This document shows positions 28,447-40,913 of a DNA stretch of 64,000 nt, in pieces (the stretch's first letter is position 1; each line of letters starts with the position of its first letter). Under the pieces are notes generated by a model. That model had not been told where the DNA came from. It made no database searches and saw only the letters and a program-made list of their open reading frames with translations. Source of the DNA: a virus; IMG/VR virus record IMGVR_UViG_3300035703_000016, positions 1 to 64,000 of that record, one strand, 5' to 3'. The position numbers were made by a program, and so were the translations under genes.

Positions 28447-29745
28447 TTATTTTTTTGGTAGTAATGAAGGAAGTTCTATCTTTTTTAAATTTGGTAACTT
28501 TAATTGAATAGGGCGAGGGACTATTTCTAATATTTTATTTAATTTAGTCTTCATCTCTTCAAATGAAAAATTAGTTTTTACATAATGAGATTGTCTTTTT
28601 GAATTATCTGTATATTTTTGGTAATTTTCAAATAAATCTACCATTTTAGCAGAAGCCAATTTCATATTCGGAGAAAACCACTTAGATCCCTGTATAAGCA
28701 TATTCTGTGCTTGAGCTGACGGATGTATATCTGTTAATTCTCCTGGAATTAATATTGAATACTCTTGATGACAAAAGTCTGTATGACCTGACCAAAAAGA
28801 AACTATTGCTGGTTTTTTACTCATAAAGAATTCTGCAAGAGGTCTACCAAAACCCTCTCCTTTAGTTAAGTATAACATTGCTTTTACTTTCTTATGATTA
28901 TATAGAAGATTCATCTCTTTATCGTCTATATCTCCATGAATTAAGTAGATATTTGGTAAATCTTTTGAGTTTATTTGTTTACGAATAGCGTCTATATTTT
29001 CTAAAATAGAATCTCTATCCATTATTGAATTAGTTCCTCTAGCTGTTTTGAGTATAAGAGCCGGCTTTTTTTTCTTATCTTTAAATGTTTCTAAGAATGT
29101 TTTTATTGTTAGTCCTAAATTCTTTCTATCTTCTCCAATGACTCCAGGTAACCAATGTCCAACAAATAAATAACAAAATGATTCTGGAATACTATCAAGA
29201 GATTTTGCTAATGGTTCTGTTGAAGAAATTTGTTCTGTGTAAAAATACTTAGAAATATCTATTCCCTCAAATAAAACTTCTACTGGTTTTTCTAATTTTA
29301 TCTGTCTAATAACTTGACCAGTTGCTTGATCTTGTTGGTTAAATGTAGAGTTTTCAAATACTGTTTTTGCATGTTGAGAAGAAACTAGAGTTAAATTCAT
29401 TCTATTACATCCGTCTATCCAACTAGGATCGCATAAAGTCGTTTCTATTCCAGCCGTCACTAAAATGTTATATTTTCCAATAGGCTGCGCTTCATTTGGT
29501 ACTGTGATTTGACACCATAAATCTGGTTGTTGAGTCAATTGATTTGCTATAAGAGGTCGTATCCATTGGTACTTTTCTTCATCTAAGTTATGCCATGGAG
29601 TATTTCCCCATCTTTGAGGAATAATTTTTATATCCCATTCATTTTTCTTAAGCTCATAAAGCGCTTTTACAAAATCATAACTTCTAGCGCCATATCCGCT
29701 GGCTGTTAAAATCGGGCAACTTATAACTGCTAATGGTTTTATCAT
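28447..29745 (-). CDS. Glycosyltransferase family 4 (GT-B)
   Basis: SGYG, DRKN and GEGFGRPLAE (EX7E) motifs. Confidence 0.85.
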   Translation of the reverse strand: MIKPLAVISCPILTASGYGARSYDFVKALYELKKNEWDIKIIPQRWGNTPWHNLDEEKYQWIRPLIANQLTQQPDLWCQITVPNEAQPIGKYNILVTAGIETTLCDPSWIDGCNRMNLTLVSSQHAKTVFENSTFNQQDQATGQVIRQIKLEKPVEVLFEGIDISKYFYTEQISSTEPLAKSLDSIPESFCYLFVGHWLPGVIGEDRKNLGLTIKTFLETFKDKKKKPALILKTARGTNSIMDRDSILENIDAIRKQINSKDLPNIYLIHGDIDDKEMNLLYNHKKVKAMLYLTKGEGFGRPLAEFFMSKKPAIVSFWSGHTDFCHQEYSILIPGELTDIHPSAQAQNMLIQGSKWFSPNMKLASAKMVDLFENYQKYTDNSKRQSHYVKTNFSFEEMKTKLNKILEIVPRPIQLKLPNLKKIELPSLLPKK

Positions 29746-29748
29746 ATT

Positions 29749-30288
29749 CTATTGTTGAGTTATTCTTATTATTTCTTTTTCTCCATTTGGTTTTGAGTAT
29801 ACGCAATGGCTTGGAGTTAATATAAATTCTATATCTTTCAATAGTTCTGCATATTTTTCTCCTATTCCAGATTTTATATACGCTATAGTCATATGCGGAT
29901 GATAATCTGGATAATTTGATGTAAATGGAAATTGTTTTAGTAAATTGTTAGCTTCTACTAGTCCTTCTCCAGAAACATTAAATTTTAAAACATCATACTT
30001 TTCATTTTCAAAAATAGAAGCATCTTTAATTTCACATGAACTAAATATAATAGAGCGTATTACGTTTTTTATTTGATCAGTGGTCACTTCTTCGTGTAAT
30101 CCATATAATAAAGTAGTATGGGGTTCTGTTTCTAATCCAAACGATCTATCGCCCTCTTCAGTATAAATGTCTGATTTTTTAATTATACTATGAATTAAAT
30201 TCATTTTAGGAAAATCAAAGTATAACATTACACATCCATAATCGTACGTCTGATTATCTTCTTTTAATAAATTAATTAATTTTATCAC
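29749..30288 (-). CDS. 2H phosphoesterase, T4 gp57B/Acb1-like
   Basis: Two HxT motifs (PHTTLLYG, PHMTIAY) with YPDYHPH context; N-terminal MIKLINLLKE leader. Confidence 0.75.
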   Translation of the reverse strand: MIKLINLLKEDNQTYDYGCVMLYFDFPKMNLIHSIIKKSDIYTEEGDRSFGLETEPHTTLLYGLHEEVTTDQIKNVIRSIIFSSCEIKDASIFENEKYDVLKFNVSGEGLVEANNLLKQFPFTSNYPDYHPHMTIAYIKSGIGEKYAELLKDIEFILTPSHCVYSKPNGEKEIIRITQQ

Positions 30289-30299
30289 TATTTTTAGTA

Positions 30300-31742
30300 T
30301 TAATATGTAAGTGGATGTTTAATTTTTTTAGGTTTGATGTCCTCAATTTTTATAAATTCAAAGCTTGCTCTCGGTTTAAATTTATCTATCGCTGTCTGTA
30401 AAGTATTACATACTCCATCTGCCATACTCTGAGCTGACATTTTAGATTCTGAAGATGTGACCCATTTTCTTCCAGATAAACCTCTTTTTTGTCTTTCTTC
30501 TGATGTCATACTATATACTTTGTTTATCGCGTCTGCTACATCTCTAAAATCACAACGATCATCAAATATATAAGGAGTAGGAATAGATCCAACTAGACTT
30601 AAATTACTAGGAAATACTGGTATTGCCCATTCTCCGCATTCTCTAAGAGTTCCAAAATGATTTGATGGCATCTCTTTTGTTGGTTCATACCACTTTCCAT
30701 CTTTTACAAATCTCATCTGATCTTGCATTCCTCCAGTTACATTTCCTATTATCATAGTTCCACTCATCATAGATTCTGTCAAACTTAATCCCCAACCTTC
30801 ATTTGAAGATATTAAAGCGGTAACATCTGCTAAATTATAGAGTAAGTTCATTTGTTCTGGAGTATATCTTTCTTCTGAAAAATAAACCTTTTGATAAGAA
30901 GGATCGCAAAGTAATTCAACTACTTTTGGAAGATCAGTTCCATGTTCATCAGTTTTTTGAGTATGAAGTAATAGAGCGCATTTAGATGCTTTTTCTTTTC
31001 CAATAGATTCTGTAAATTTAGACCAAGCGGCTATAAGATCTGAAGTTGATTTTCTCCTTATATTTCTAGCATTATACAATACTATAAATTCTGGATTAAA
31101 TGAGCCAAATATGCCCTTTTTCATTTTTTCCATTTCTGAATTAGCCTCAATCATAAACTCATTTATAGGAAAAAATGTCTTTTCGTTAATACCATGAGGA
31201 ACATAATTAATTATTTTATCTTTAATTTTCTCCTCTAGTACTAATTCAGTCAATATTTTAGTTTGTTTTGATATGCACATAAATGCGTCACATGACTCGT
31301 AATATGATTTATTGTATATAGGGGCTGGATCTGAATCCCAAATTTGTAAATATATAATAGGCATTCTTTTTCTTATTTCTGCCTCCATATCAAAAAGCCA
31401 TACGAAATATCTAGGATCTGTAAATAGCATAATAGCGTCAGGTCTCTCTATTTCTATTATTTGTCTTACTAGTTCTGGAGTTCCGTATCCATCTGTGGGA
31501 TACATTATAACTGAAGAATCTTCAATTTCTAAAATCTTGTTTGTATCTTGAGATAAGTCTAGTCTTTTTCCTTTTTCTGGATGATTTATTCCACCTGCTA
31601 TTTGAACCCAATTAAATTTATGAGCAGACCCTAAAACTATTTCTCTTGTCATAGTTGCTACTCCACTTGTCATTCTCAGATCATCTGATAGCAAAAGAAT
31701 TTTTTTCCTGCTGTCTTTATTTATGTAACCTTGTTTTATCAT
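30300..31742 (-). CDS. Glycosyltransferase family 4 (GT-B)
   Basis: VPHGI, RNIRRK and NEGWGLSLTE motifs. Confidence 0.85.
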   Translation of the reverse strand: MIKQGYINKDSRKKILLLSDDLRMTSGVATMTREIVLGSAHKFNWVQIAGGINHPEKGKRLDLSQDTNKILEIEDSSVIMYPTDGYGTPELVRQIIEIERPDAIMLFTDPRYFVWLFDMEAEIRKRMPIIYLQIWDSDPAPIYNKSYYESCDAFMCISKQTKILTELVLEEKIKDKIINYVPHGINEKTFFPINEFMIEANSEMEKMKKGIFGSFNPEFIVLYNARNIRRKSTSDLIAAWSKFTESIGKEKASKCALLLHTQKTDEHGTDLPKVVELLCDPSYQKVYFSEERYTPEQMNLLYNLADVTALISSNEGWGLSLTESMMSGTMIIGNVTGGMQDQMRFVKDGKWYEPTKEMPSNHFGTLRECGEWAIPVFPSNLSLVGSIPTPYIFDDRCDFRDVADAINKVYSMTSEERQKRGLSGRKWVTSSESKMSAQSMADGVCNTLQTAIDKFKPRASFEFIKIEDIKPKKIKHPLTY

Positions 31743-34157: not shown

Positions 34158-34640
34158 TTAAAAATTTGAGGTTGAAAGATTTTTCATATACTTTATTGTA
34201 TTCTCATTAGTAATAGTGTGAATATGAGTCATAGCTTCTTGGTCTATTGGAATACACGTATTTCCATCAATCAAGTGTTCAATACAGCTTTTTTTAGTAA
34301 TCATAGTTTTTGGATCTAATTCATAAATCTTTCCTCCGTATCTATTATCTAATTTTGAAAGAGGAACAGCTATAAAATAAGTCCTATAGCTATTCATTAT
34401 TTTTTCAAGTTGATTATTTTTAACCATAAATGATTTATCTTTTATCATAGGAACGAGAGTTTTTACTTCTACGTCTTTTCCATCTACTAATAAATCTCTT
34501 TTTCTATCAAATAGATCTTCTGATAAAAGAACTACTTTTCCTTTTAGAGTGAAATAATTAGCTATTATTTTTTCTCCTAAATTTCCCAGCTCTTTATTTT
34601 TAAAATCCGAAGTATTCGAATATGAATTTAAGTATGACAT
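34158..34640 (-). CDS. PD-(D/E)XK endonuclease-like protein
   Basis: G..GE..., DLLVDG..VEVKT. Confidence 0.6.
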   Translation of the reverse strand: MSYLNSYSNTSDFKNKELGNLGEKIIANYFTLKGKVVLLSEDLFDRKRDLLVDGKDVEVKTLVPMIKDKSFMVKNNQLEKIMNSYRTYFIAVPLSKLDNRYGGKIYELDPKTMITKKSCIEHLIDGNTCIPIDQEAMTHIHTITNENTIKYMKNLSTSNF

Positions 34641-34644
34641 GTTT

Positions 34645-36441
34645 CTATTTTGATTCTAATATAGATTTGAACTTGAAGTATGATTTATGTTTTTCAACGC
34701 CTGGAATATTCCAACCATTATCGAAATCTTTTATCGTATGTTCTTGTTTTATATAATATTGCCATATTGGATTTTTTATATACTTTAACCATACACACAA
34801 AAGATCTTCTAAGTCAACGGGTTTCATATTATACCTTGCACAAAGTTTGTCAAAATCTTTATACTTAAATCCAGGTCTGAGAATTTTCATAGAGGCAGTT
34901 GCAGTTGGACCTAATTTACACTCAGACCACTCATCTATATCAAATAAACCTTTTATTTTTGTATCTAGATTCACATAATTTGCTAAATCCCCTGCCATTA
35001 ATAAGTAATGAAAATTAAAAGCATGTAGATTATGTTTGCTATTATACTGATTCATTACATCTACTATACCGCATAGACTTGTTTTTGGTTTAATATTCTC
35101 TATTATATGGTCTGCCCATGGTCTAAAATGATTAATAACAAGATCTTTAAGAGGATATCTAGGAGGTTGATTCACGCAACAACTAACAAAATTTCCCTTA
35201 TCTTCTTTCATAAACTTATAAAAGTCTACATGAGAATTATAATTTTGAAAATTTAAAAGAATAGTGTTATTATATCCGTGATTAAATTGATTTGAAGTTC
35301 CAGATCCAAAAATCCTATGAGAATAGATTAAAAATAAATAATCATATATTTCCCAATTTGGATTTGCAATTGGTTTATAAATATCCCAAGTAAGTGATTC
35401 TTTACCCATAAAATAGTCTTCAAGCAAGAATATAAATCCTTCATATCTTCTATCAATATTATGGAATAGGTTTACATTGTCTATGTAATTATCTCCAGTA
35501 TTAAACTCTCTTTTTCTTGTGTCAATAAAGACTTTTTCTGTCTTTCGGTTGATATCGATATAGTAATCCAAACACTCTAAAGCTATCGGATTCCATCCAT
35601 TTTCATCTAGTGTAATATTTGCTTTTGACTTTTTTTCTTTATCTTTTATCAAATACACGCTAGAAGATCCAGAGTTTTTTTCTTCTTCGTTAATAGGAAC
35701 TGGTTCTGCAAAATCATAATAATCTTCAGTCTTACATTGATATTCTTCTTGAGGAACTGGGGGGCTAGATAGAATAAGATCTGATATTGACGTCTTTACG
35801 TCTGGTGTTAGCATATTAAAATGCTTTTCATAGATATGCAAATTTGTTATAAAAAAATGCATTGTGCCAATTTGAGTATTTGTTTCAAAACAAACCATAC
35901 TCATTAATTTTGCAAATGTGTATTGATCATTTGAGAATCCATAGACTAAATCAATACTTCTTGCAAATACTGTAAGATTTAGTCTTCCTTCTACTATGGT
36001 GAAGTTTAGCACAATGTTACAGGGAGTGTCTGAGGCATACCTGTCTAGCTCATTTATATCGTAATGAACAATTATAGCTCTTCTAGTATTAGGGTTGCTC
36101 TTGAGCTCCTGAATAGCTCGTTCTAGCTGACCTCCTTTTTGCCAAAAATATCCATAGTTTGAATTCACTTCATTTGTACCAGGAACTATCATGTTATTCC
36201 ACAGTTTGGCTCTTTTAGCAATTTCAGTCACATCTCTATTTCCTGACAAATACCAATGCCACTCATACTCTGCGTAAGATTGGTTAAATTTTCTCTCTGG
36301 TTCTGTGATAACCATTTGAAGTGGATTATCTAAAGTAAAAGAGACATTAAATTTAGTTTTTGTTTTTGAAAAGTCTACTCCATTTTGCATTATATCAAAA
36401 TATAGACCTCTAAAAGCCTCATTTGCATTTTTAAAATTCAT
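34645..36441 (-). CDS. Thymidylate-synthase-family (dCMP hydroxymethylase-like) enzyme fused to an aGPT-pyrophosphorylase-like helical domain
   Basis: NSNYG, TRRA, PC, RSIDLVYGFSND and LHIY in the N-terminal half; FHNIDRR, GPTA and DLEDLLC..KY in the C-terminal half. Confidence 0.75.
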   Translation of the reverse strand: MNFKNANEAFRGLYFDIMQNGVDFSKTKTKFNVSFTLDNPLQMVITEPERKFNQSYAEYEWHWYLSGNRDVTEIAKRAKLWNNMIVPGTNEVNSNYGYFWQKGGQLERAIQELKSNPNTRRAIIVHYDINELDRYASDTPCNIVLNFTIVEGRLNLTVFARSIDLVYGFSNDQYTFAKLMSMVCFETNTQIGTMHFFITNLHIYEKHFNMLTPDVKTSISDLILSSPPVPQEEYQCKTEDYYDFAEPVPINEEEKNSGSSSVYLIKDKEKKSKANITLDENGWNPIALECLDYYIDINRKTEKVFIDTRKREFNTGDNYIDNVNLFHNIDRRYEGFIFLLEDYFMGKESLTWDIYKPIANPNWEIYDYLFLIYSHRIFGSGTSNQFNHGYNNTILLNFQNYNSHVDFYKFMKEDKGNFVSCCVNQPPRYPLKDLVINHFRPWADHIIENIKPKTSLCGIVDVMNQYNSKHNLHAFNFHYLLMAGDLANYVNLDTKIKGLFDIDEWSECKLGPTATASMKILRPGFKYKDFDKLCARYNMKPVDLEDLLCVWLKYIKNPIWQYYIKQEHTIKDFDNGWNIPGVEKHKSYFKFKSILESK

Positions 36442-36910
36442 GTTGTTGTATTTCTATAAATTGTTTAAGAAATTGTAGGCCATCAGTTTTTCTATATTCT
36501 TCTAAATAGACTACTTTTTTAATTCCAGATTGCAGTATTAATTTTGAACATTCAATACAAGGAGATAGAGTAATATATAAAGTCGCTCCATTTACAGAAT
36601 ATCCAACTTTTGCAGCTTTTAAAATAGCGTTCATCTCTGCATGTATAACTTCTAGAACTGTTACTCCGCCTCTTTCACAACAATTATCTACTCCAGTAGG
36701 AGTTCCATTATAACCGAAAGATACTACATTGTCATCTTTTACTATTATTGCTCCAACTTTAGATCTTTCGCAATGTGACAGTTTAGATATCTCTTTAGCT
36801 ATATTTATATAGACTGTATCTAATTTTTTTTGCTTATCCATAACCTGTATTTTATTTTCTGTATTTATAGTTATTTTTATTCCATAACCATATAGATCAA
36901 AACTATTCAT
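36431..36910 (-). CDS. dCMP deaminase
   Basis: GYNG, HAEMNA and LSPCIECS motifs. Confidence 0.92.
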   Translation of the reverse strand: MNSFDLYGYGIKITINTENKIQVMDKQKKLDTVYINIAKEISKLSHCERSKVGAIIVKDDNVVSFGYNGTPTGVDNCCERGGVTVLEVIHAEMNAILKAAKVGYSVNGATLYITLSPCIECSKLILQSGIKKVVYLEEYRKTDGLQFLKQFIEIQQHEF

Positions 36911-36915
36911 TTTTT

Positions 36916-37347
36916 TTAGTTTACTCCAGTACTACCAAATCCTCCATCTTTTCTTTGTGTCTCTATATCTTCAAGCTCATCTACAACTTCTATACTATCA
37001 TAATTCATAGGAATAAGAATAAATTGAATTATTTTTTGTCCTGGAGTTATTAATACTTGACTATTTCCAGAATTAAAAACATGAATGTGAATTTCTCCAG
37101 TATAGTCTTCATCAACAACTTCAGCTCCCTTTGTTAATTTATTTTTAGTTGCTACTCCAGATTTATTAAAAGCTATTAAAGCATAACCAGATGGGATTCT
37201 TACTTTTATTCCAGAAGGTATTAGAGCGTCTTCTCCTGGGGATAGTAGTATAGGTTCTAAGTCATTAGGTGTATAAAAGTCAATTCCCGCGCTTTTGGAT
37301 GTGCCTCTTGAAGGTGACTTAACGTCACGACATTTTTGAATTTTCAT
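36916..37347 (-). CDS. dut: Trimeric dUTPase
   Basis: SAGID, KSG, VDEDYTGE and RKDGGFGSTG motifs. Confidence 0.92.
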   Translation of the reverse strand: MKIQKCRDVKSPSRGTSKSAGIDFYTPNDLEPILLSPGEDALIPSGIKVRIPSGYALIAFNKSGVATKNKLTKGAEVVDEDYTGEIHIHVFNSGNSQVLITPGQKIIQFILIPMNYDSIEVVDELEDIETQRKDGGFGSTGVN

Positions 37348-37349
37348 TT

Positions 37350-37628
37350 TTATTTAGTTTTATCGTAGTCTTCTTTATAATGTTCTACCATAGCTGTTAA
37401 ATACGCTATAGCATCAAGTATATTATCATATTTTTTAGCATAAGATTCTCTACTCATTTTAAGAGCAACCATGCATAGATACATGTCTTTCGCAGTTATT
37501 TGTTTTCCTGTCATAGTAGAAGCCAAAGTTGCTGCTTTTTCCATGCTCTCTTTCATTGGACCGTATTTTCTAGAGGATTCTTCTGCTCTACGATATACAA
37601 TATCTTGTGCGTGCTCAAGTACATTCAT
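37350..37628 (-). CDS. DUF6378-like small helical protein
   Basis: R...YG......A...S...G........M..LK.SR....K.D...D..AY. Confidence 0.7.
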   Translation of the reverse strand: MNVLEHAQDIVYRRAEESSRKYGPMKESMEKAATLASTMTGKQITAKDMYLCMVALKMSRESYAKKYDNILDAIAYLTAMVEHYKEDYDKTK

Positions 37629-37655
37629 ATAATTAATTTATATATTATTTTCTAT

Positions 37656-38579
37656 TTAAGAAATTAATTCATGCAAGTACGGAAAATATTTAGGCTTTAG
37701 ATGTACTGACTGCTTAGATTCTAGAATATCCAGCATTTTAGTTCCGTCTGAATCAACCCAATCTTTTGGCCAACTAATATATTTCAATCCAGAATTTTCA
37801 ATCATTTCATTAGCTATGTCTCTTAATTCCATTCTCAATTGCCTACTTCCATAAAATGGTTTACCTTTATATAGTCCAGTTCCAGGTATTTTTCTAGATT
37901 CATGCTCTATAGGTATTAATTCTACTAAAGTTGGATTATTTAACTCTCTTGCAAAATTTATATACTTTGAAAACAGTTTTTCTGTTTCTTTATAGGGATC
38001 TTCCATTCTTCCTAAATGAAATCTTGTGTCTATATTTCCAAAATAAAGTACAACATTGCCAGGCCTCTGTTCATTAATAGCTTGAGCATTTGCATGTTTT
38101 AACCACCCAAATAAAGTCTTACCTGGATTATAACTAAGAGCGTATCCTGGTCTCCATACTGAAAGAGAATGAGAATCTCCTATAACTATATTTGGATTTG
38201 CTTTTGAAAAATAGTCAATAGCTCGACTTATTGGCCAATTATTGCTATCTACTTTTATTCTTTGATTAAATTTTCTAAAATCAAAAGTTTTATTTACAAA
38301 CTCAAATTGTCCATTGAATTTTGAGATAGCTTCCATTTTCTTAGCATGGATTGGACCAGGACCTCCAGGGATATTGAAACTTCCATCTACAAAATTAACT
38401 CCTTCGCAAATATAAAGTTTTTCATATTGATTCCAAGTTTCTGGACTTGGATTAACATCTATATCGTCTTGAGGATTAAAATCCTTAACCATCTTTGTTG
38501 ATATAAGGCCATAAGCACCTCCTTGAAAATTCAAGGAAGTACTCACATTTGCCATAATTGATACTAGAGCAGCTTTCAT
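37656..38579 (-). CDS. SGNH/GDSL-hydrolase-like protein in the nucleotide-modification cluster
   Basis: IGDSH (block I), FGNID (block III), SVHL (block V). Confidence 0.6.
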   Translation of the reverse strand: MKAALVSIMANVSTSLNFQGGAYGLISTKMVKDFNPQDDIDVNPSPETWNQYEKLYICEGVNFVDGSFNIPGGPGPIHAKKMEAISKFNGQFEFVNKTFDFRKFNQRIKVDSNNWPISRAIDYFSKANPNIVIGDSHSLSVWRPGYALSYNPGKTLFGWLKHANAQAINEQRPGNVVLYFGNIDTRFHLGRMEDPYKETEKLFSKYINFARELNNPTLVELIPIEHESRKIPGTGLYKGKPFYGSRQLRMELRDIANEMIENSGLKYISWPKDWVDSDGTKMLDILESKQSVHLKPKYFPYLHELIS

Positions 38580-38596
38580 TTATTTATTTTTATAAA

Positions 38597-40249
38597 TTAC
38601 ATTAATCCTGACATATTTGGAATATCAGAAGTATCGTTATCTTTTTCTGATTTTTTCTGTAAAACCACAGATTCAACAGTTATGATTGTTCCAGCTACTC
38701 CAGCAGCATTTCTAAGAGCAGATATAGCCACTTTAGTAGGATCTAAAAGCCCAAATTCGATCCCGTTTACTACTTTTTTATCTTTGGCATCATATGTTGT
38801 AAATGAATCATTTTGTGTAGAAATTTCATGTAATATCTCATACCAATTTTCTATTCCAGCATTTGATAATATTTTTTTAAATGGAGCCAAGCAAGCAGCA
38901 AGTACTATGTCAAATCCTATTTTTTCATTCTCTTTCCAATCTTTAGTAATGTCTTTTATTCTAGAAATTGCATTTATAAGAGCGATTCCGCCACCAGGAA
39001 GGATTCCTTCAGAGAGAGCTGCTTTTGTTGCTAGAAGCGCATCTTCTACTCTGTCTTTTTTCTCTTTCATTTCAATTTCAGAGTTTCCTCCAACATTGAT
39101 TATTGCAACTCCTCCAATAAGTTTTCCTAAACGTTCTTGTAGTTTTTCTTTTTCAAAAAATGACTGAGCATTATCAATTTGATCTTTTATATCTTTAGAC
39201 CTATCTATTATTGCTTGAGAATCACCTTTTCCATCTACTATAGTTGTTTGTTCTTTTCCTACAGTTACCATTCTAGCGCGACCAAGTAAAGAATCTATCG
39301 TAGCTGGATTTGTTTTTTCTAGCTTATGTCCTTTATTTTTTGACATTACTGTAGCGCCTGTAAGAATTGCTATGTCCTCTAGCATCAAAGTTCTGCGATC
39401 TCCAAAATCTGGAGCTTTAGTAGCACAAACCTTAACCACGCCTCTCATCTTATTTACTATGATAACAGCTAGGGCTTCATCTCCAAAGTCTTCTGCTATT
39501 ATTAATATTGACTTATTCTCAGAATTAGCCTTTTGCAAAAATGGAACTATCTCCTCATGGCTATTTATTCTACCATCATATATCATAATATATGCATCCT
39601 CTAACACAGCTTGCATTGTTGTATTATCTGTTACTAGATACGGACTTTTATATCCTCTGTCAAATTGCATACCTTCAACGACTTCTAAAGTAGTTTCTCC
39701 AGTCTTAGATTCTTCAATAGTTATTAAACCTTCTCTACCGACTTTATCAATAGCTGCTGATATAAGTTCTCCAACTTCAAAATCATTATTTCCAGATATT
39801 ACTGCAACTTGTTTAATTTGCTCTTCTGTGCTAACATCAATAGATAAATTCTTAAGCTCTTGTATAACTAGATTTACTGTTTTATCTATACCTGATTTAA
39901 CTTCAACTGCATTTGTTCCTTGACGTATAGATTTTATTCCCTCTTGAATCATTTTTGTGGCAAGTATAGTAGAAGTTGTTGTACCGTCACCAGCCTCATT
40001 TGCTGATTTTATAGCGACTTGTTTTACCATTTGAGCGCCAATGTCTTCAAAATCGTTTTCTAATCGAGTTATTGACTTTGAACAACTAACTCCATCTTTT
40101 GTGGCTTTTACTTCCCCATTTGGTTCTCTTATTAAAACCGTACGACCTCCAGGACCTAAAGTAGAAGACACTATATCGTTTAGTTTATTAATTCCTACTA
40201 ATAGCTTTTCTTTTAACTCAATTCCTGTTAAGTGTTGTGTTTGACTCAT
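38597..40249 (-). CDS. groEL: Chaperonin GroEL
   Basis: TLGP.GR.V, TKDGV, AGDGTTT, EGMQFDRGY and GILPGGG motifs. Confidence 0.97.
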   Translation of the reverse strand: MSQTQHLTGIELKEKLLVGINKLNDIVSSTLGPGGRTVLIREPNGEVKATKDGVSCSKSITRLENDFEDIGAQMVKQVAIKSANEAGDGTTTSTILATKMIQEGIKSIRQGTNAVEVKSGIDKTVNLVIQELKNLSIDVSTEEQIKQVAVISGNNDFEVGELISAAIDKVGREGLITIEESKTGETTLEVVEGMQFDRGYKSPYLVTDNTTMQAVLEDAYIMIYDGRINSHEEIVPFLQKANSENKSILIIAEDFGDEALAVIIVNKMRGVVKVCATKAPDFGDRRTLMLEDIAILTGATVMSKNKGHKLEKTNPATIDSLLGRARMVTVGKEQTTIVDGKGDSQAIIDRSKDIKDQIDNAQSFFEKEKLQERLGKLIGGVAIINVGGNSEIEMKEKKDRVEDALLATKAALSEGILPGGGIALINAISRIKDITKDWKENEKIGFDIVLAACLAPFKKILSNAGIENWYEILHEISTQNDSFTTYDAKDKKVVNGIEFGLLDPTKVAISALRNAAGVAGTIITVESVVLQKKSEKDNDTSDIPNMSGLM

Positions 40250-40264
40250 AATTATTTTATATTT

Positions 40265-40624
40265 TTATTCAGTTATTTTTATAAATTTTTTCAGACTATG
40301 CACTACTTGTCTAAATAGATAATCTTTACTTCTTTGTTCTACAGGCAATTCTGAATATGGAATATAGCAAGGATGTTCTTTTGTTTCTACATTTTTAACT
40401 GGTCCGTATTTCCAACCTTCTTCTGTCTTCTGCTTCATCCAACTTTCATGAGAAGCTTCTGGTGTTGCATTTGGGTTATCGATATGAAATTTTACTCCAT
40501 TTTCTGCAGATGATTTTTGCCAGTCTGGCGCTAAGCTCCATGGTAATTGAGACGTATCGCCTATACTTTGACAATATGCCATATTAATTTCGTGTGCTAC
40601 TTGAGCTATATCTTGAATTGTCAT
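40265..40624 (-). CDS. RyR-domain protein
   Basis: HESWM.QK..EGWKYGPVK..TKEHPC.IPY.ELP..Q..KD. Confidence 0.85.
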   Translation of the reverse strand: MTIQDIAQVAHEINMAYCQSIGDTSQLPWSLAPDWQKSSAENGVKFHIDNPNATPEASHESWMKQKTEEGWKYGPVKNVETKEHPCYIPYSELPVEQRSKDYLFRQVVHSLKKFIKITE

Positions 40625-40625
40625 G

Positions 40626-40913
40626 TTATGCTAATACTCCCAGTATTTCTGTTTCTTTTGTTAAAAAATAATCTTCTCCAGACATGCTAATTTTAGTAGT
40701 TCCCATTTTAGGAATCATTACTATATCTCCAACATTTAAATTAGACAGGATAACTCTGTCACTATGATAATTAAATGTTCCAGAGACTGCAATAACTTCT
40801 CCAGTTTCTGGTCTTTCTTTTCCCATGTCAGGCAATATAATGTTGCCTACCATTTCTTCGGATGATTCTACGGGCCTTATCAAAATGTACCCATTCATTG
40901 GTTTTATATTCAT
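40626..40913 (-). CDS. groES: Co-chaperonin GroES
   Basis: IKP....LI, GNIILPD..KE.P..GEVIAV, VGD.V and E.EILGVL motifs. Confidence 0.93.
   Translation of the reverse strand: MNIKPMNGYILIRPVESSEEMVGNIILPDMGKERPETGEVIAVSGTFNYHSDRVILSNLNVGDIVMIPKMGTTKISMSGEDYFLTKETEILGVLA

Follow-up and report, generated by a model that had tools for sequence, protein, structure and literature searches.

A dCMP-hydroxymethylase-type domain fused to a helix-hairpin-helix domain suggests a cytosine-hypermodification gene set in phages

Introduction

What does a phage do with a protein that joins, in a single reading frame, a domain of the kind that hydroxymethylates deoxycytidine monophosphate (dCMP) to a domain of the kind known from thymine hypermodification? 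The question is raised by a 598-amino-acid (aa) open reading frame (ORF) on the minus strand (34645-36441) of the virus record IMGVR_UViG_3300035703_000016 in IMG/VR, of which we analysed the first 64 kb, positions 1 to 64,000 (the window). The frame is intact and encodes, in order, a thymidylate synthase (TS) domain of dCMP-hydroxymethylase type, an acidic linker, and a domain resembling the helix-hairpin-helix (HhH) alpha-glutamyl/putrescinyl-thymine pyrophosphorylases (aGPT-Pplase). All characterised pathways of the aGPT-Pplases, or amino acid:DNA transferases (AADTs), decorate thymine via 5-hydroxymethyluracil (5hmU) and a DNA kinase, and the decorations known so far on 5-hydroxymethylcytosine (5hmC) are sugars and a carbamoyl group. 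We favour, with some reserve, the reading that the fusion gene encodes a bifunctional enzyme of a phage cytosine-hypermodification pathway, in which 5hmC is made and then derivatised by the HhH-like enzyme together with a partner protein, here called X. The gene set is widespread and probably gives phage DNA a cytosine modification that is so far undescribed. A preliminary description of this DNA had arrived at the same overall reading, a dCMP hydroxymethylase coupled to decoration chemistry of the aGPT-Pplase kind, and it is supported here by the active-site signature of the first domain and by the fold and a Glu/Cys pair of the second; that 5hmC is indeed decorated is what we infer from these.

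The N-terminal domain

Residues 1-216 (35794-36441, minus strand) are predicted to form a dCMP hydroxymethylase, or 5-hydroxymethyl-dCMP synthase, of the T4 gp42 type. The Pfam family Thymidylat_synt (PF00303) covers residues 49-216 with an E value of 7.6e-27 (94.6 bits, cut-off 24.3), and among solved structures the T4 dCMP hydroxymethylase (PDB 1b49) matches the domain at E 3e-16, with SDTPC aligned to SDFMC at the catalytic Cys (C146 in E. coli, C148 in T4). The stretch RSIDLVYGFSND of the fusion ORF aligns without gaps with RSNDVVFGFRND of the T4 enzyme; RSID..SND of the ORF pairs with RSND..RND of T4, and FSND against FRND puts an Asp at the position of T4 D179, which is N177 in E. coli ThyA. 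The preliminary description had taken this change of N177 to Asp, as in T4 gp42, to point to dCMP as the substrate, and the alignment bears it out, together with the full diagnostic signature E-D-C-D-D (E60, D138, C141, D164 and D172). In the numbering of E. coli ThyA, N177D selects dCMP, L143D or L143E accompanies a hydroxymethyl product, and D169N marks 5-hydroxy-dCMP synthases (PMC13326640, 2026). The ORF has Asp at all three of these positions, N177, L143 (Asp138) and D169 (Asp164), which argues for a 5-hydroxymethyl-dCMP synthase; the assignment rests on this active-site signature. Two related activities are ruled out at the same positions: a 5-hydroxy-dCMP synthase, as Asp169 is kept, and a dCMP methylase, as the L143 position is acidic. 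In tblastn, the phage proteins that match the domain best come from Bacteroides phages; they are 44% identical and carry the annotation deoxycytidylate 5-hydroxymethyltransferase. The linker that follows (residues ~217-283; 35593-35793, minus strand) is acidic, of low complexity, and has no family match.

The C-terminal domain

Residues 284-598 (315 aa; 34648-35592, minus strand) are assigned, from a structural model, fold searches and motifs, to an all-helical HhH-glycosylase fold within the aGPT-Pplase superfamily. AlphaFold2, run on the family alignment, gave an all-helical model with a predicted local distance difference test score (pLDDT) of 89.2 and a predicted template-modelling score of 0.87, the first seven residues of the construct (261-267 of the protein) having pLDDT below 50. 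The top matches in BFVD are phage proteins named "Amino acid:DNA transferase domain-containing" (E 4e-8, probability 1.0), followed by aGPT-Pplase clade 1 proteins and endonuclease III, and Foldseek against the PDB returned weak matches to AGOG only (E ~1). Exhaustive alignment (VIA) to 48,161 PDB chains ranked first 8z2m_A, the 5-PmdU glycinyltransferase gp46 of phage PaMx11, with Z 8.8 and a root-mean-square deviation of 3.8 Å over 196 aligned residues; the next ranks are AGOG (8.2) and QNG1/DUF2419 (8.1 and 8.0), and then HhH glycosylases with Z 4-7.5. The assignment to the HhH-glycosylase fold is solid, but the lead of gp46 over the other HhH enzymes does not exceed the tie margin, AGOG and QNG1 being less than one Z unit behind. 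The preliminary description expected an HhH/aGPT-Pplase fold in this domain, and the model, Foldseek and the PDB comparison gave an HhH fold with gp46 as the best match.

Three motifs run through the domain, FHNIDRR (326-332), GPTATAS (511-517) and DLEDLLCVWLKY (543-554), marked by domain positions 66, 251 and 285. All three had been named in the preliminary description, all three are present, and they are not a product of chance. Relaxed to E...C.[FWY].[KR][YFW], the last of them is carried by 69 family ORFs out of 81, whereas the 1911 other ORFs of the fetched loci described below (0/1911) and the other ORFs of the source genome lack it. Conserved residues are His375, Arg376, Gly379, Ser380, Asn392, Phe477, Asp485, Gly511, Glu545 and Cys549; in domain numbering, the alignment columns H115, G119, S120, G129, N132, F217, D225, G251 and E285 are invariant and R71, R116 and C289 nearly so. 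Glu545 is found in all 36 family members compared and Cys549 in 35 of the 36. These two residues bear on catalysis in the characterised enzymes: Cys247 and Glu243 of gp46 line the catalytic pocket, and in M6 gp51 and ViI gp247 mutation of the Cys or the Glu abolishes activity. The stretch D-L-E-D-L-L-C-V-W of the fusion ORF matches E-V-E-T-I-L-C-K-W of gp46 (E241, E243, C247, W249), and by this comparison the Glu-x3-Cys pair of the AADTs appears to be retained as E545/C549.

The family is a distant one. Residues 261-598 searched against Pfam and PHROGs at E <= 10 gave nothing useful, and none of 50,697 GenBank phage records was matched in tblastn by the domain or by two distant members of the family. 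A word-indexed search found close relatives only, some stand-alone (330-445 aa) and most of them fused (578-607 aa), the fused forms coming from independent metagenomes and from five IMG/VR loci (L001-L005). When 1.8 billion representatives were searched exhaustively with phmmer, 37 proteins scored E <= 1e-3; most of these stand alone, are 300-390 aa long and show 25-30% identity. Two proteins of this set, P0035 (790 aa) and P0047 (740 aa), carry the domain in their C-terminal halves behind ~400 N-terminal residues and could represent additional fusions. Of 35 family members, a single one has a weak match to the Pfam family ADDT (PF18724; E 1e-3), and the family profile against all PDB sequences returned only noise, gp46 not being recovered by sequence. 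Net charge and isoelectric point did not separate DNA enzymes from nucleotide enzymes, and are uninformative because the known AADTs are acidic too.

Within the superfamily, the clade 1 protein PaMx11 gp50 (PF18723, E 5.6e-41) has F.NI.R at 41, GP.A at 206 and E..LC.[FW].KY at 265, the same order as in the fusion protein. In the ESM Atlas, 24 of the 30 nearest clusters are of PF18723 type with a score of 0.96 (220 of 256 features in common) against 0.93 for ADDT clusters, neither the score nor the motif order being a statistical test. By motifs and language-model features, the domain thus appears nearer to clade 1 (HMUDK_hel) than to the proven transferases of clade 2. Clade 1 itself has no proven function, given that gp55, its member in M6, is dispensable in the reconstituted in vitro reaction. 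Neither hidden Markov model (HMM) nor profile-profile comparison gave a significant match to clade 1, 2 or 3, and we therefore place the domain as a separate clade of the superfamily, outside any Pfam family. The resemblance to the aGPT-Pplase family proposed in the preliminary description is therefore kept at the level of fold, motifs and the Glu/Cys pair, but does not extend to passing any of the three Pfam aGPT-Pplase models.

The partner protein X

X (307 aa; 37656-38579, minus strand; phrog_13881, E 1.5e-38) is predicted to consist of an N-terminal alpha/beta domain of ~125 aa and a C-terminal SGNH-fold esterase/acyltransferase domain with Ser136, Gly158, Asn182 and His293. In the AlphaFold2 model (pLDDT 83.8) the SGNH fold spans residues 127-303. 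Foldseek matched it to TesA and sialate O-acetylesterase (probability 1.0, E 1.6e-4), and all of the top 50 VIA matches are SGNH/GDSL esterases or O-acetyltransferases, with Z 8.3-12.2. The invariant blocks are G-D-S-H, T..G, D-x-R-x-H (inside G-N-I-D-x-R-x-H) and E-x3-S-x-H. Among the alignment columns, S136, G158 and H293 do not vary at all, G181 and I183 (GNID block) hardly vary, and N182 is seen in the alignment and is off the conserved list. Searched against Pfam at E <= 0.01, X has no match and no GDSL model, and only a distant ESM Atlas cluster carries Lipase_GDSL.

Clustering of neighbour genes placed X homologues (BLAST 1e-18 to 1e-32) directly upstream of the C-domain relative in distant loci. 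All 25 loci with flanks of 7 kb or more on either side contain X, and in one locus (L020) X and the C-domain relative are one ORF. The preliminary description had seen in X an SGNH-like neighbour; the SGNH fold stands, and "neighbour" is too little, X being a conserved, obligate and sometimes fused partner. We know of no SGNH enzyme that acts on DNA bases. X probably replaces the DNA kinase of the thymidine systems.

Distribution of the gene set

A pattern scan of IMG/VR with the distant group found at least 211 contigs with relatives of the C-domain, of which 80 loci were retrieved. Of 85 loci, 64 have a TS homologue in the flank, usually on the same strand and at a distance of 1-2 kb; in five loci with no TS nearby, a re-check located one in another part of each contig. 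E-D-C-D-D is the reading in every one of the 69 associated TS homologues checked, with the catalytic Cys in 69/69. As a control, the TS enzymes beside true thymidine (AADT) cassettes, PaMx11 gp51 and the ViI ThyA, read E-D-C-D-N. This signature, with Asn in the control, therefore ties the C-domain family to hydroxymethylases of the dCMP type. X, a dCMP-type TS and a C-domain relative form a conserved three-part association, with fusions among them, and a gene of the dCMP deaminase family is near the cassette in 48 loci.

Most of the distant cassettes carry two further genes. One encodes a pyridoxal phosphate (PLP) enzyme of ~300 aa that is a relative of cysteine synthase/O-acetylserine sulfhydrylase (OASS; profile against PDB, E 2.5e-5; 21 of 25 loci), and another a Tmk/YorR-like nucleotide kinase (E 4e-17; 11 of 25 loci), which is of the nucleotide type and not a 5-hmU DNA kinase. 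The source lineage has the minimal form, X and the fusion of TS and C-domain only.

Some carriers are in culture. X searched by tblastn against GenBank phages gave 43 matches, in T4-like Aeromonas phages, Stenotrophomonas phage IME13 and Tenacibaculum phages PTm1 and PTm5. In Aeromonas phage 44RR2.8t, residues 1-336 of the 795-aa ORF233c (L103:7001-9388) are X (HMM E 6e-96), and the other 459 aa weakly match PF18723 (E 9e-4) and contain GPGACATLERLWPG, comparable to GPTATASMKILRPG of the fusion ORF, and an E-x3-C. The same phage has a gp42-type TS reading E-D-C-D-D and a canonical td. Profile-profile alignment (hhalign) of our family with the 44RR C-terminus was not significant, and the family profile had no match in 44RR or PTm1. 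Directly upstream of ORF233c lies a gene for a Na:solute symporter (L103:5408-6931; PF00474, E 6e-53), which might import a substrate. Tenacibaculum phage PTm1 has a stand-alone X that adjoins ribonucleotide reductase genes. A divergent TS of PTm1 (record positions 123231-123866; L109) reads D-E-C-N-D (D169N with N177D), resembling the 5-hydroxy-dCMP synthase signature of PMC13326640, with one TAA in the match. In the literature we found no report on DNA modification in these Aeromonas, Stenotrophomonas and Tenacibaculum carrier phages, and no paper that ties an aGPT-Pplase-like or SGNH protein to 5hmC.

Kinases and thymidylate supply

The preliminary description had seen no 5-hydroxymethylpyrimidine DNA kinase in the window, and neither the window nor the 158-kb genome as a whole has a match to PF18748 (5-hmU DNA kinase). 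The genome's only AAA_33 P-loop kinase (131 aa; 142701-143096, minus strand; E 1.4e-13) lies 106 kb from the cassette. A true kinase, PaMx11 gp49, is also in AAA_33 (E 2.9e-6), and the protein at 142701-143096 has no specific similarity to gp49; the shared family therefore leaves it as the only candidate base or nucleotide kinase in the genome, unlinked to the cassette.

The rest of the genome was also searched for a separate canonical thyA, as the preliminary description had suggested, and it was found at 129997-131169 (minus strand; 312 bits), with LPPCH and FNIAS giving Leu143, Cys146 and Asn177. This ThyA has 390 aa, ~120 aa above the usual length, and an insertion splits its Pfam match (residues 9-389 against 265 profile positions). 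ThyX has no match in the source genome. Because the genome has its own canonical ThyA, the dCMP deaminase and dUTPase encoded beside the fusion gene would most simply supply dUMP for this separate ThyA, as in T4.

A proposed pathway and its alternatives

We propose that the N-terminal domain makes 5-hydroxymethyl-dCMP, which would then be phosphorylated and built into DNA as 5hmC. The C-terminal domain may flip 5hmC out of the DNA and use its Glu/Cys pair on the pyrimidine, in the manner of the thymidine enzymes gp46, gp51 and gp247. X would work with the C-terminal domain, standing where the 5-hmU DNA kinase stands in the thymidine systems, and in the version that we prefer it would esterify the 5-hydroxymethyl oxygen or otherwise process that oxygen. 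Attack of the Cys at C6 could then expel the activated group and let a new nucleophile add, to yield a 5-(substituted-methyl)cytosine. The dCMP deaminase, the dUTPase and the ThyA at 129997-131169 would run dTMP synthesis in parallel, like td and cd of T4.

A bolder version of this pathway, which we hold only tentatively, specifies a kinase-independent route. An SGNH enzyme would esterify the hydroxyl of 5hmC in DNA, and a Cys/Glu enzyme of a fourth, cytosine-dedicated aGPT-Pplase clade would swap the ester for a new group, giving an undescribed base. Hundreds of aquatic phage lineages would have such a route, and cultured T4-like Aeromonas phages such as 44RR2.8t and 31 would have it in fused form; the PLP-dependent OASS-like enzyme would extend it in relatives.

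Several points weigh against the proposal of a bifunctional enzyme for cytosine hypermodification. The three Pfam aGPT-Pplase models (PF18724, PF18723 and PF18746) have no match in the C-terminal domain or in the whole genome, PF18724 even at E <= 10. The hhalign comparison of the family with three true AADTs was not significant, with a probability of 0.2%, and the comparison with the clade 1 protein PaMx11 gp50 was not significant either (0.7%); in both, only the Glu/Cys stretch aligned. The Z of 8.8 to gp46, within 1 of AGOG and QNG1, is moderate for helical proteins, and the nearest clade is the one whose role is unproven. No kinase for the monophosphate 5-hydroxymethyl-dCMP (gp1-type or Tmk-type; PF02223) was found in the source genome. 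Homologues of the PLP-like, Tmk-like and dUTPase_2 genes that distant cassettes carry are also missing from the genome, and the lack of the OASS-like PLP enzyme and the Tmk-like kinase, which most related cassettes have, counts here as well. The decoration of DNA is read from sequence and models, and the data let us name neither an acyl donor nor a nucleophile. Finally, a mononucleotide enzyme fused to a DNA enzyme is an unexpected pairing for consecutive steps.

This last point is where the strongest alternative begins. The C-terminal domain could act before replication, converting the free 5-hydroxymethyl-dCMP released by its fused neighbour ahead of phosphorylation and polymerisation, so that the fusion would join consecutive steps on a mononucleotide. 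QNG1/DUF2419, which has a glycosylase fold and, going by PDB titles, acts on a free nucleotide, scores level with the DNA enzymes (Z 8.0-8.1). A Tmk/YorR-like nucleotide kinase stands beside the TS gene in distant cassettes, and the 5hmC carbamoyltransferase also accepts 5-hydroxymethyl-dCTP (PMC8670742). We nevertheless regard this order of events as unlikely, though worth keeping in view: gp46, the closest solved relative, acts on DNA with the base flipped out, the GP.A hairpin-like motif is conserved, the TS and C-domain genes are separate in most loci, 1-7 kb apart, and the phage polymerase would need to tolerate a bulky deoxynucleoside triphosphate.

Somewhat less probable still, in our judgement, is a division of labour in which the HhH-like domain serves for base flipping or targeting, a role that clade 1 may have towards the 5-hmU DNA kinase, and X alone does the chemistry; the end product would then be 5-acyloxymethyl-cytosine, or X would take such an acyl group off. 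The three motifs in the order of clade 1 gp50, the 24 of 30 ESM Atlas matches of PF18723 type (0.96) and the weak PF18723 match in the C-terminus of 44RR ORF233c (E 9e-4) all suit a targeting role. X for its part has the full SGNH catalytic set and resembles the O-acetyltransferases PatB and OatA (Z ~10), and it stands alone in PTm1, where no C-domain relative was found. Yet Glu545, Cys549, His375, Ser380, Asn392 and Asp485 are invariant or nearly so, a pattern more in keeping with an active site than with a binding module; in clade 2 this Glu/Cys pair is catalytic, and clade 1, on which the analogy leans, is without a demonstrated role.

That the phage makes plain 5hmC only, with the C-terminal domain and X serving other ends, for example as a glycosylase acting on unmodified host DNA or as a cell-envelope esterase, seems improbable to us. 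Phage SGNH esterases often act on polysaccharides, HhH glycosylases hold ranks 2-21 of the fold search, and an N4 tail protein appears at rank 49 of the structure search with X. Against this stand the linkage of X, the C-domain relative and a dCMP-type TS across divergent phages, with fusions both ways (TS with C-domain and X with C-domain), the place of X among nucleotide-metabolism genes and not among structural or lysis genes, and a conserved Cys that is typical of transferases, not of glycosylases. The notion that the N-terminal domain is simply a thymidylate synthase, or else hydroxymethylates dUMP, and that the pathway concerns thymine, can be set aside with little hesitation: a dCMP deaminase and a dUTPase that supply dUMP lie directly upstream and tblastn also finds ViI-type dUMP hydroxymethylases at 28% identity, but the N177 position is Asp where the ViI and PaMx11 enzymes have Asn, the genome has its own canonical ThyA at 312 bits, and the best phage matches, at 44% identity, are annotated as dCMP hydroxymethyltransferases.

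Genome setting

The source record, from an uncultured aquatic phage, is a 158,434-bp IMG/VR genome with direct terminal repeats, graded complete, with a G+C content of ~30%; no GenBank phage is closely related to it. Almost all genes of the region are on the minus strand, where the order of transcription is GroEL, X (38579-37656), DUF6378, dUTPase, dCMP deaminase, the 598-aa ORF (36441-34645), a 160-aa ORF, thioredoxin, a zinc-ribbon protein and a PD-(D/E)XK exonuclease. The same gene order is found in the five related IMG/VR contigs L001-L005, with protein identities of 70-95%. The neighbours named in the preliminary description as dCMP deaminase, dUTPase and a DUF6378-like protein were each confirmed by a Pfam match. 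The dCMP deaminase (36431-36910, minus strand; PF00383, E 4.2e-27; phrog_174, E 1.3e-57) overlaps the fusion ORF by 11 bases, and it is preceded by a trimeric dUTPase (36916-37347, minus strand; PF00692, E 3.8e-25). Between the latter and X is the DUF6378 protein (37350-37628, minus strand; PF19905, E 1.5e-12), which is 90-96% identical in L001-L005.

Several other genes of the region may be recorded. The 160-aa ORF directly downstream of the fusion gene (34158-34640, minus strand) has no Pfam or PHROG match, and among L001-L005 only L005 has it; by eye it shows a G.LGE ... D ... EVK pattern like that of PD-(D/E)XK nucleases. Directly upstream of the modification genes, the phage encodes its own GroEL (550 aa; 38597-40249) and GroES (95 aa; 40626-40913), and their genes flank that of a 119-aa RyR-domain protein (40265-40624; PF02026, E 8e-12), all three on the minus strand. 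Two GT-B glycosyltransferases (Glycos_transf_1; 28447-29745 and 30300-31742, minus strand) are encoded downstream of the cassette, at a distance of 3-6 kb, and are kept in L001, L003, L004 and L005. Between them, a 179-aa protein (29749-30288, minus strand) has weak 2H-phosphoesterase matches, to Acb1 (E 1.9e-5) and to 2'-5' RNA ligase (E 2.2e-5), both under the Pfam cut-offs; it is absent from L001-L005.

Significance

If the proposed cytosine pathway is correct, it would be a new branch of DNA hypermodification chemistry, built from a dCMP hydroxymethylase, a transferase-like enzyme of glycosylase fold and an SGNH enzyme, and with a new activating principle, an ester in place of a phosphate. 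It would probably also mean a new natural base, with consequences for many environmental phages in their response to restriction and CRISPR and in their sequencing behaviour. Because fused forms occur in cultured Aeromonas phages, the question is open to direct nucleoside mass spectrometry.

Comparison with known systems

The nearest parallel for the first half of the pathway is the T4 system of gp42, td and cd, which shares with our locus the gp42 alignment (the Cys, Asp179 and the acidic L143 position), a separate ThyA and a dCMP deaminase. It differs in that the fusion ORF adds a 315-aa domain of glycosylase fold to the gp42-like part, and in that here no homologue of the alpha- or beta-glucosyltransferase was identified as the decorating enzyme and no kinase of gp1 or Tmk type for deoxynucleoside monophosphates was found. 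For the second half, the clade 2 AADTs (PF18724; PaMx11 gp46/PUGT, M6 gp51 and ViI gp247) have in common with the C-terminal domain the helical HhH fold, the motif (D/E)-x-E-x3-C-x-W and a nearby TS-family hydroxymethylase. In contrast to them, the TS that accompanies the C-domain family is of the dCMP and not the dUMP type, the partner is an SGNH protein and not a P-loop 5-hmU DNA kinase, and the C-terminal domain has no HMM or profile-profile match to this clade. Clade 1 (PF18723, "5-hmdU DNA kinase, helical domain"; PaMx11 gp50 and M6 gp55) is similar in motif order, in the ESM Atlas and through the weak 44RR match, but the HMM and hhalign matches to it are not significant and the C-terminal domain is not next to a P-loop kinase. 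For X, the SGNH/GDSL enzymes (TesA, sialate O-acetylesterase, PatB and OatA) share the fold of its C-terminal half with the Ser, Gly, Asn and His, whereas X has the extra N-terminal domain of ~125 aa, no Pfam GDSL match, and E-x3-S-x-H in place of D-x-x-H in block V. As whole gene sets, the 5hmC carbamoyltransferase cassettes found with MetaGPA (PMC8670742) are comparable, for they too bring together a dCMP-type TS, a dCMP deaminase and a 5hmC-decorating enzyme in uncultured phages; the difference lies in the decorating enzyme, which is there a TobZ-like carbamoyltransferase, unrelated to either the HhH-like domain or X.

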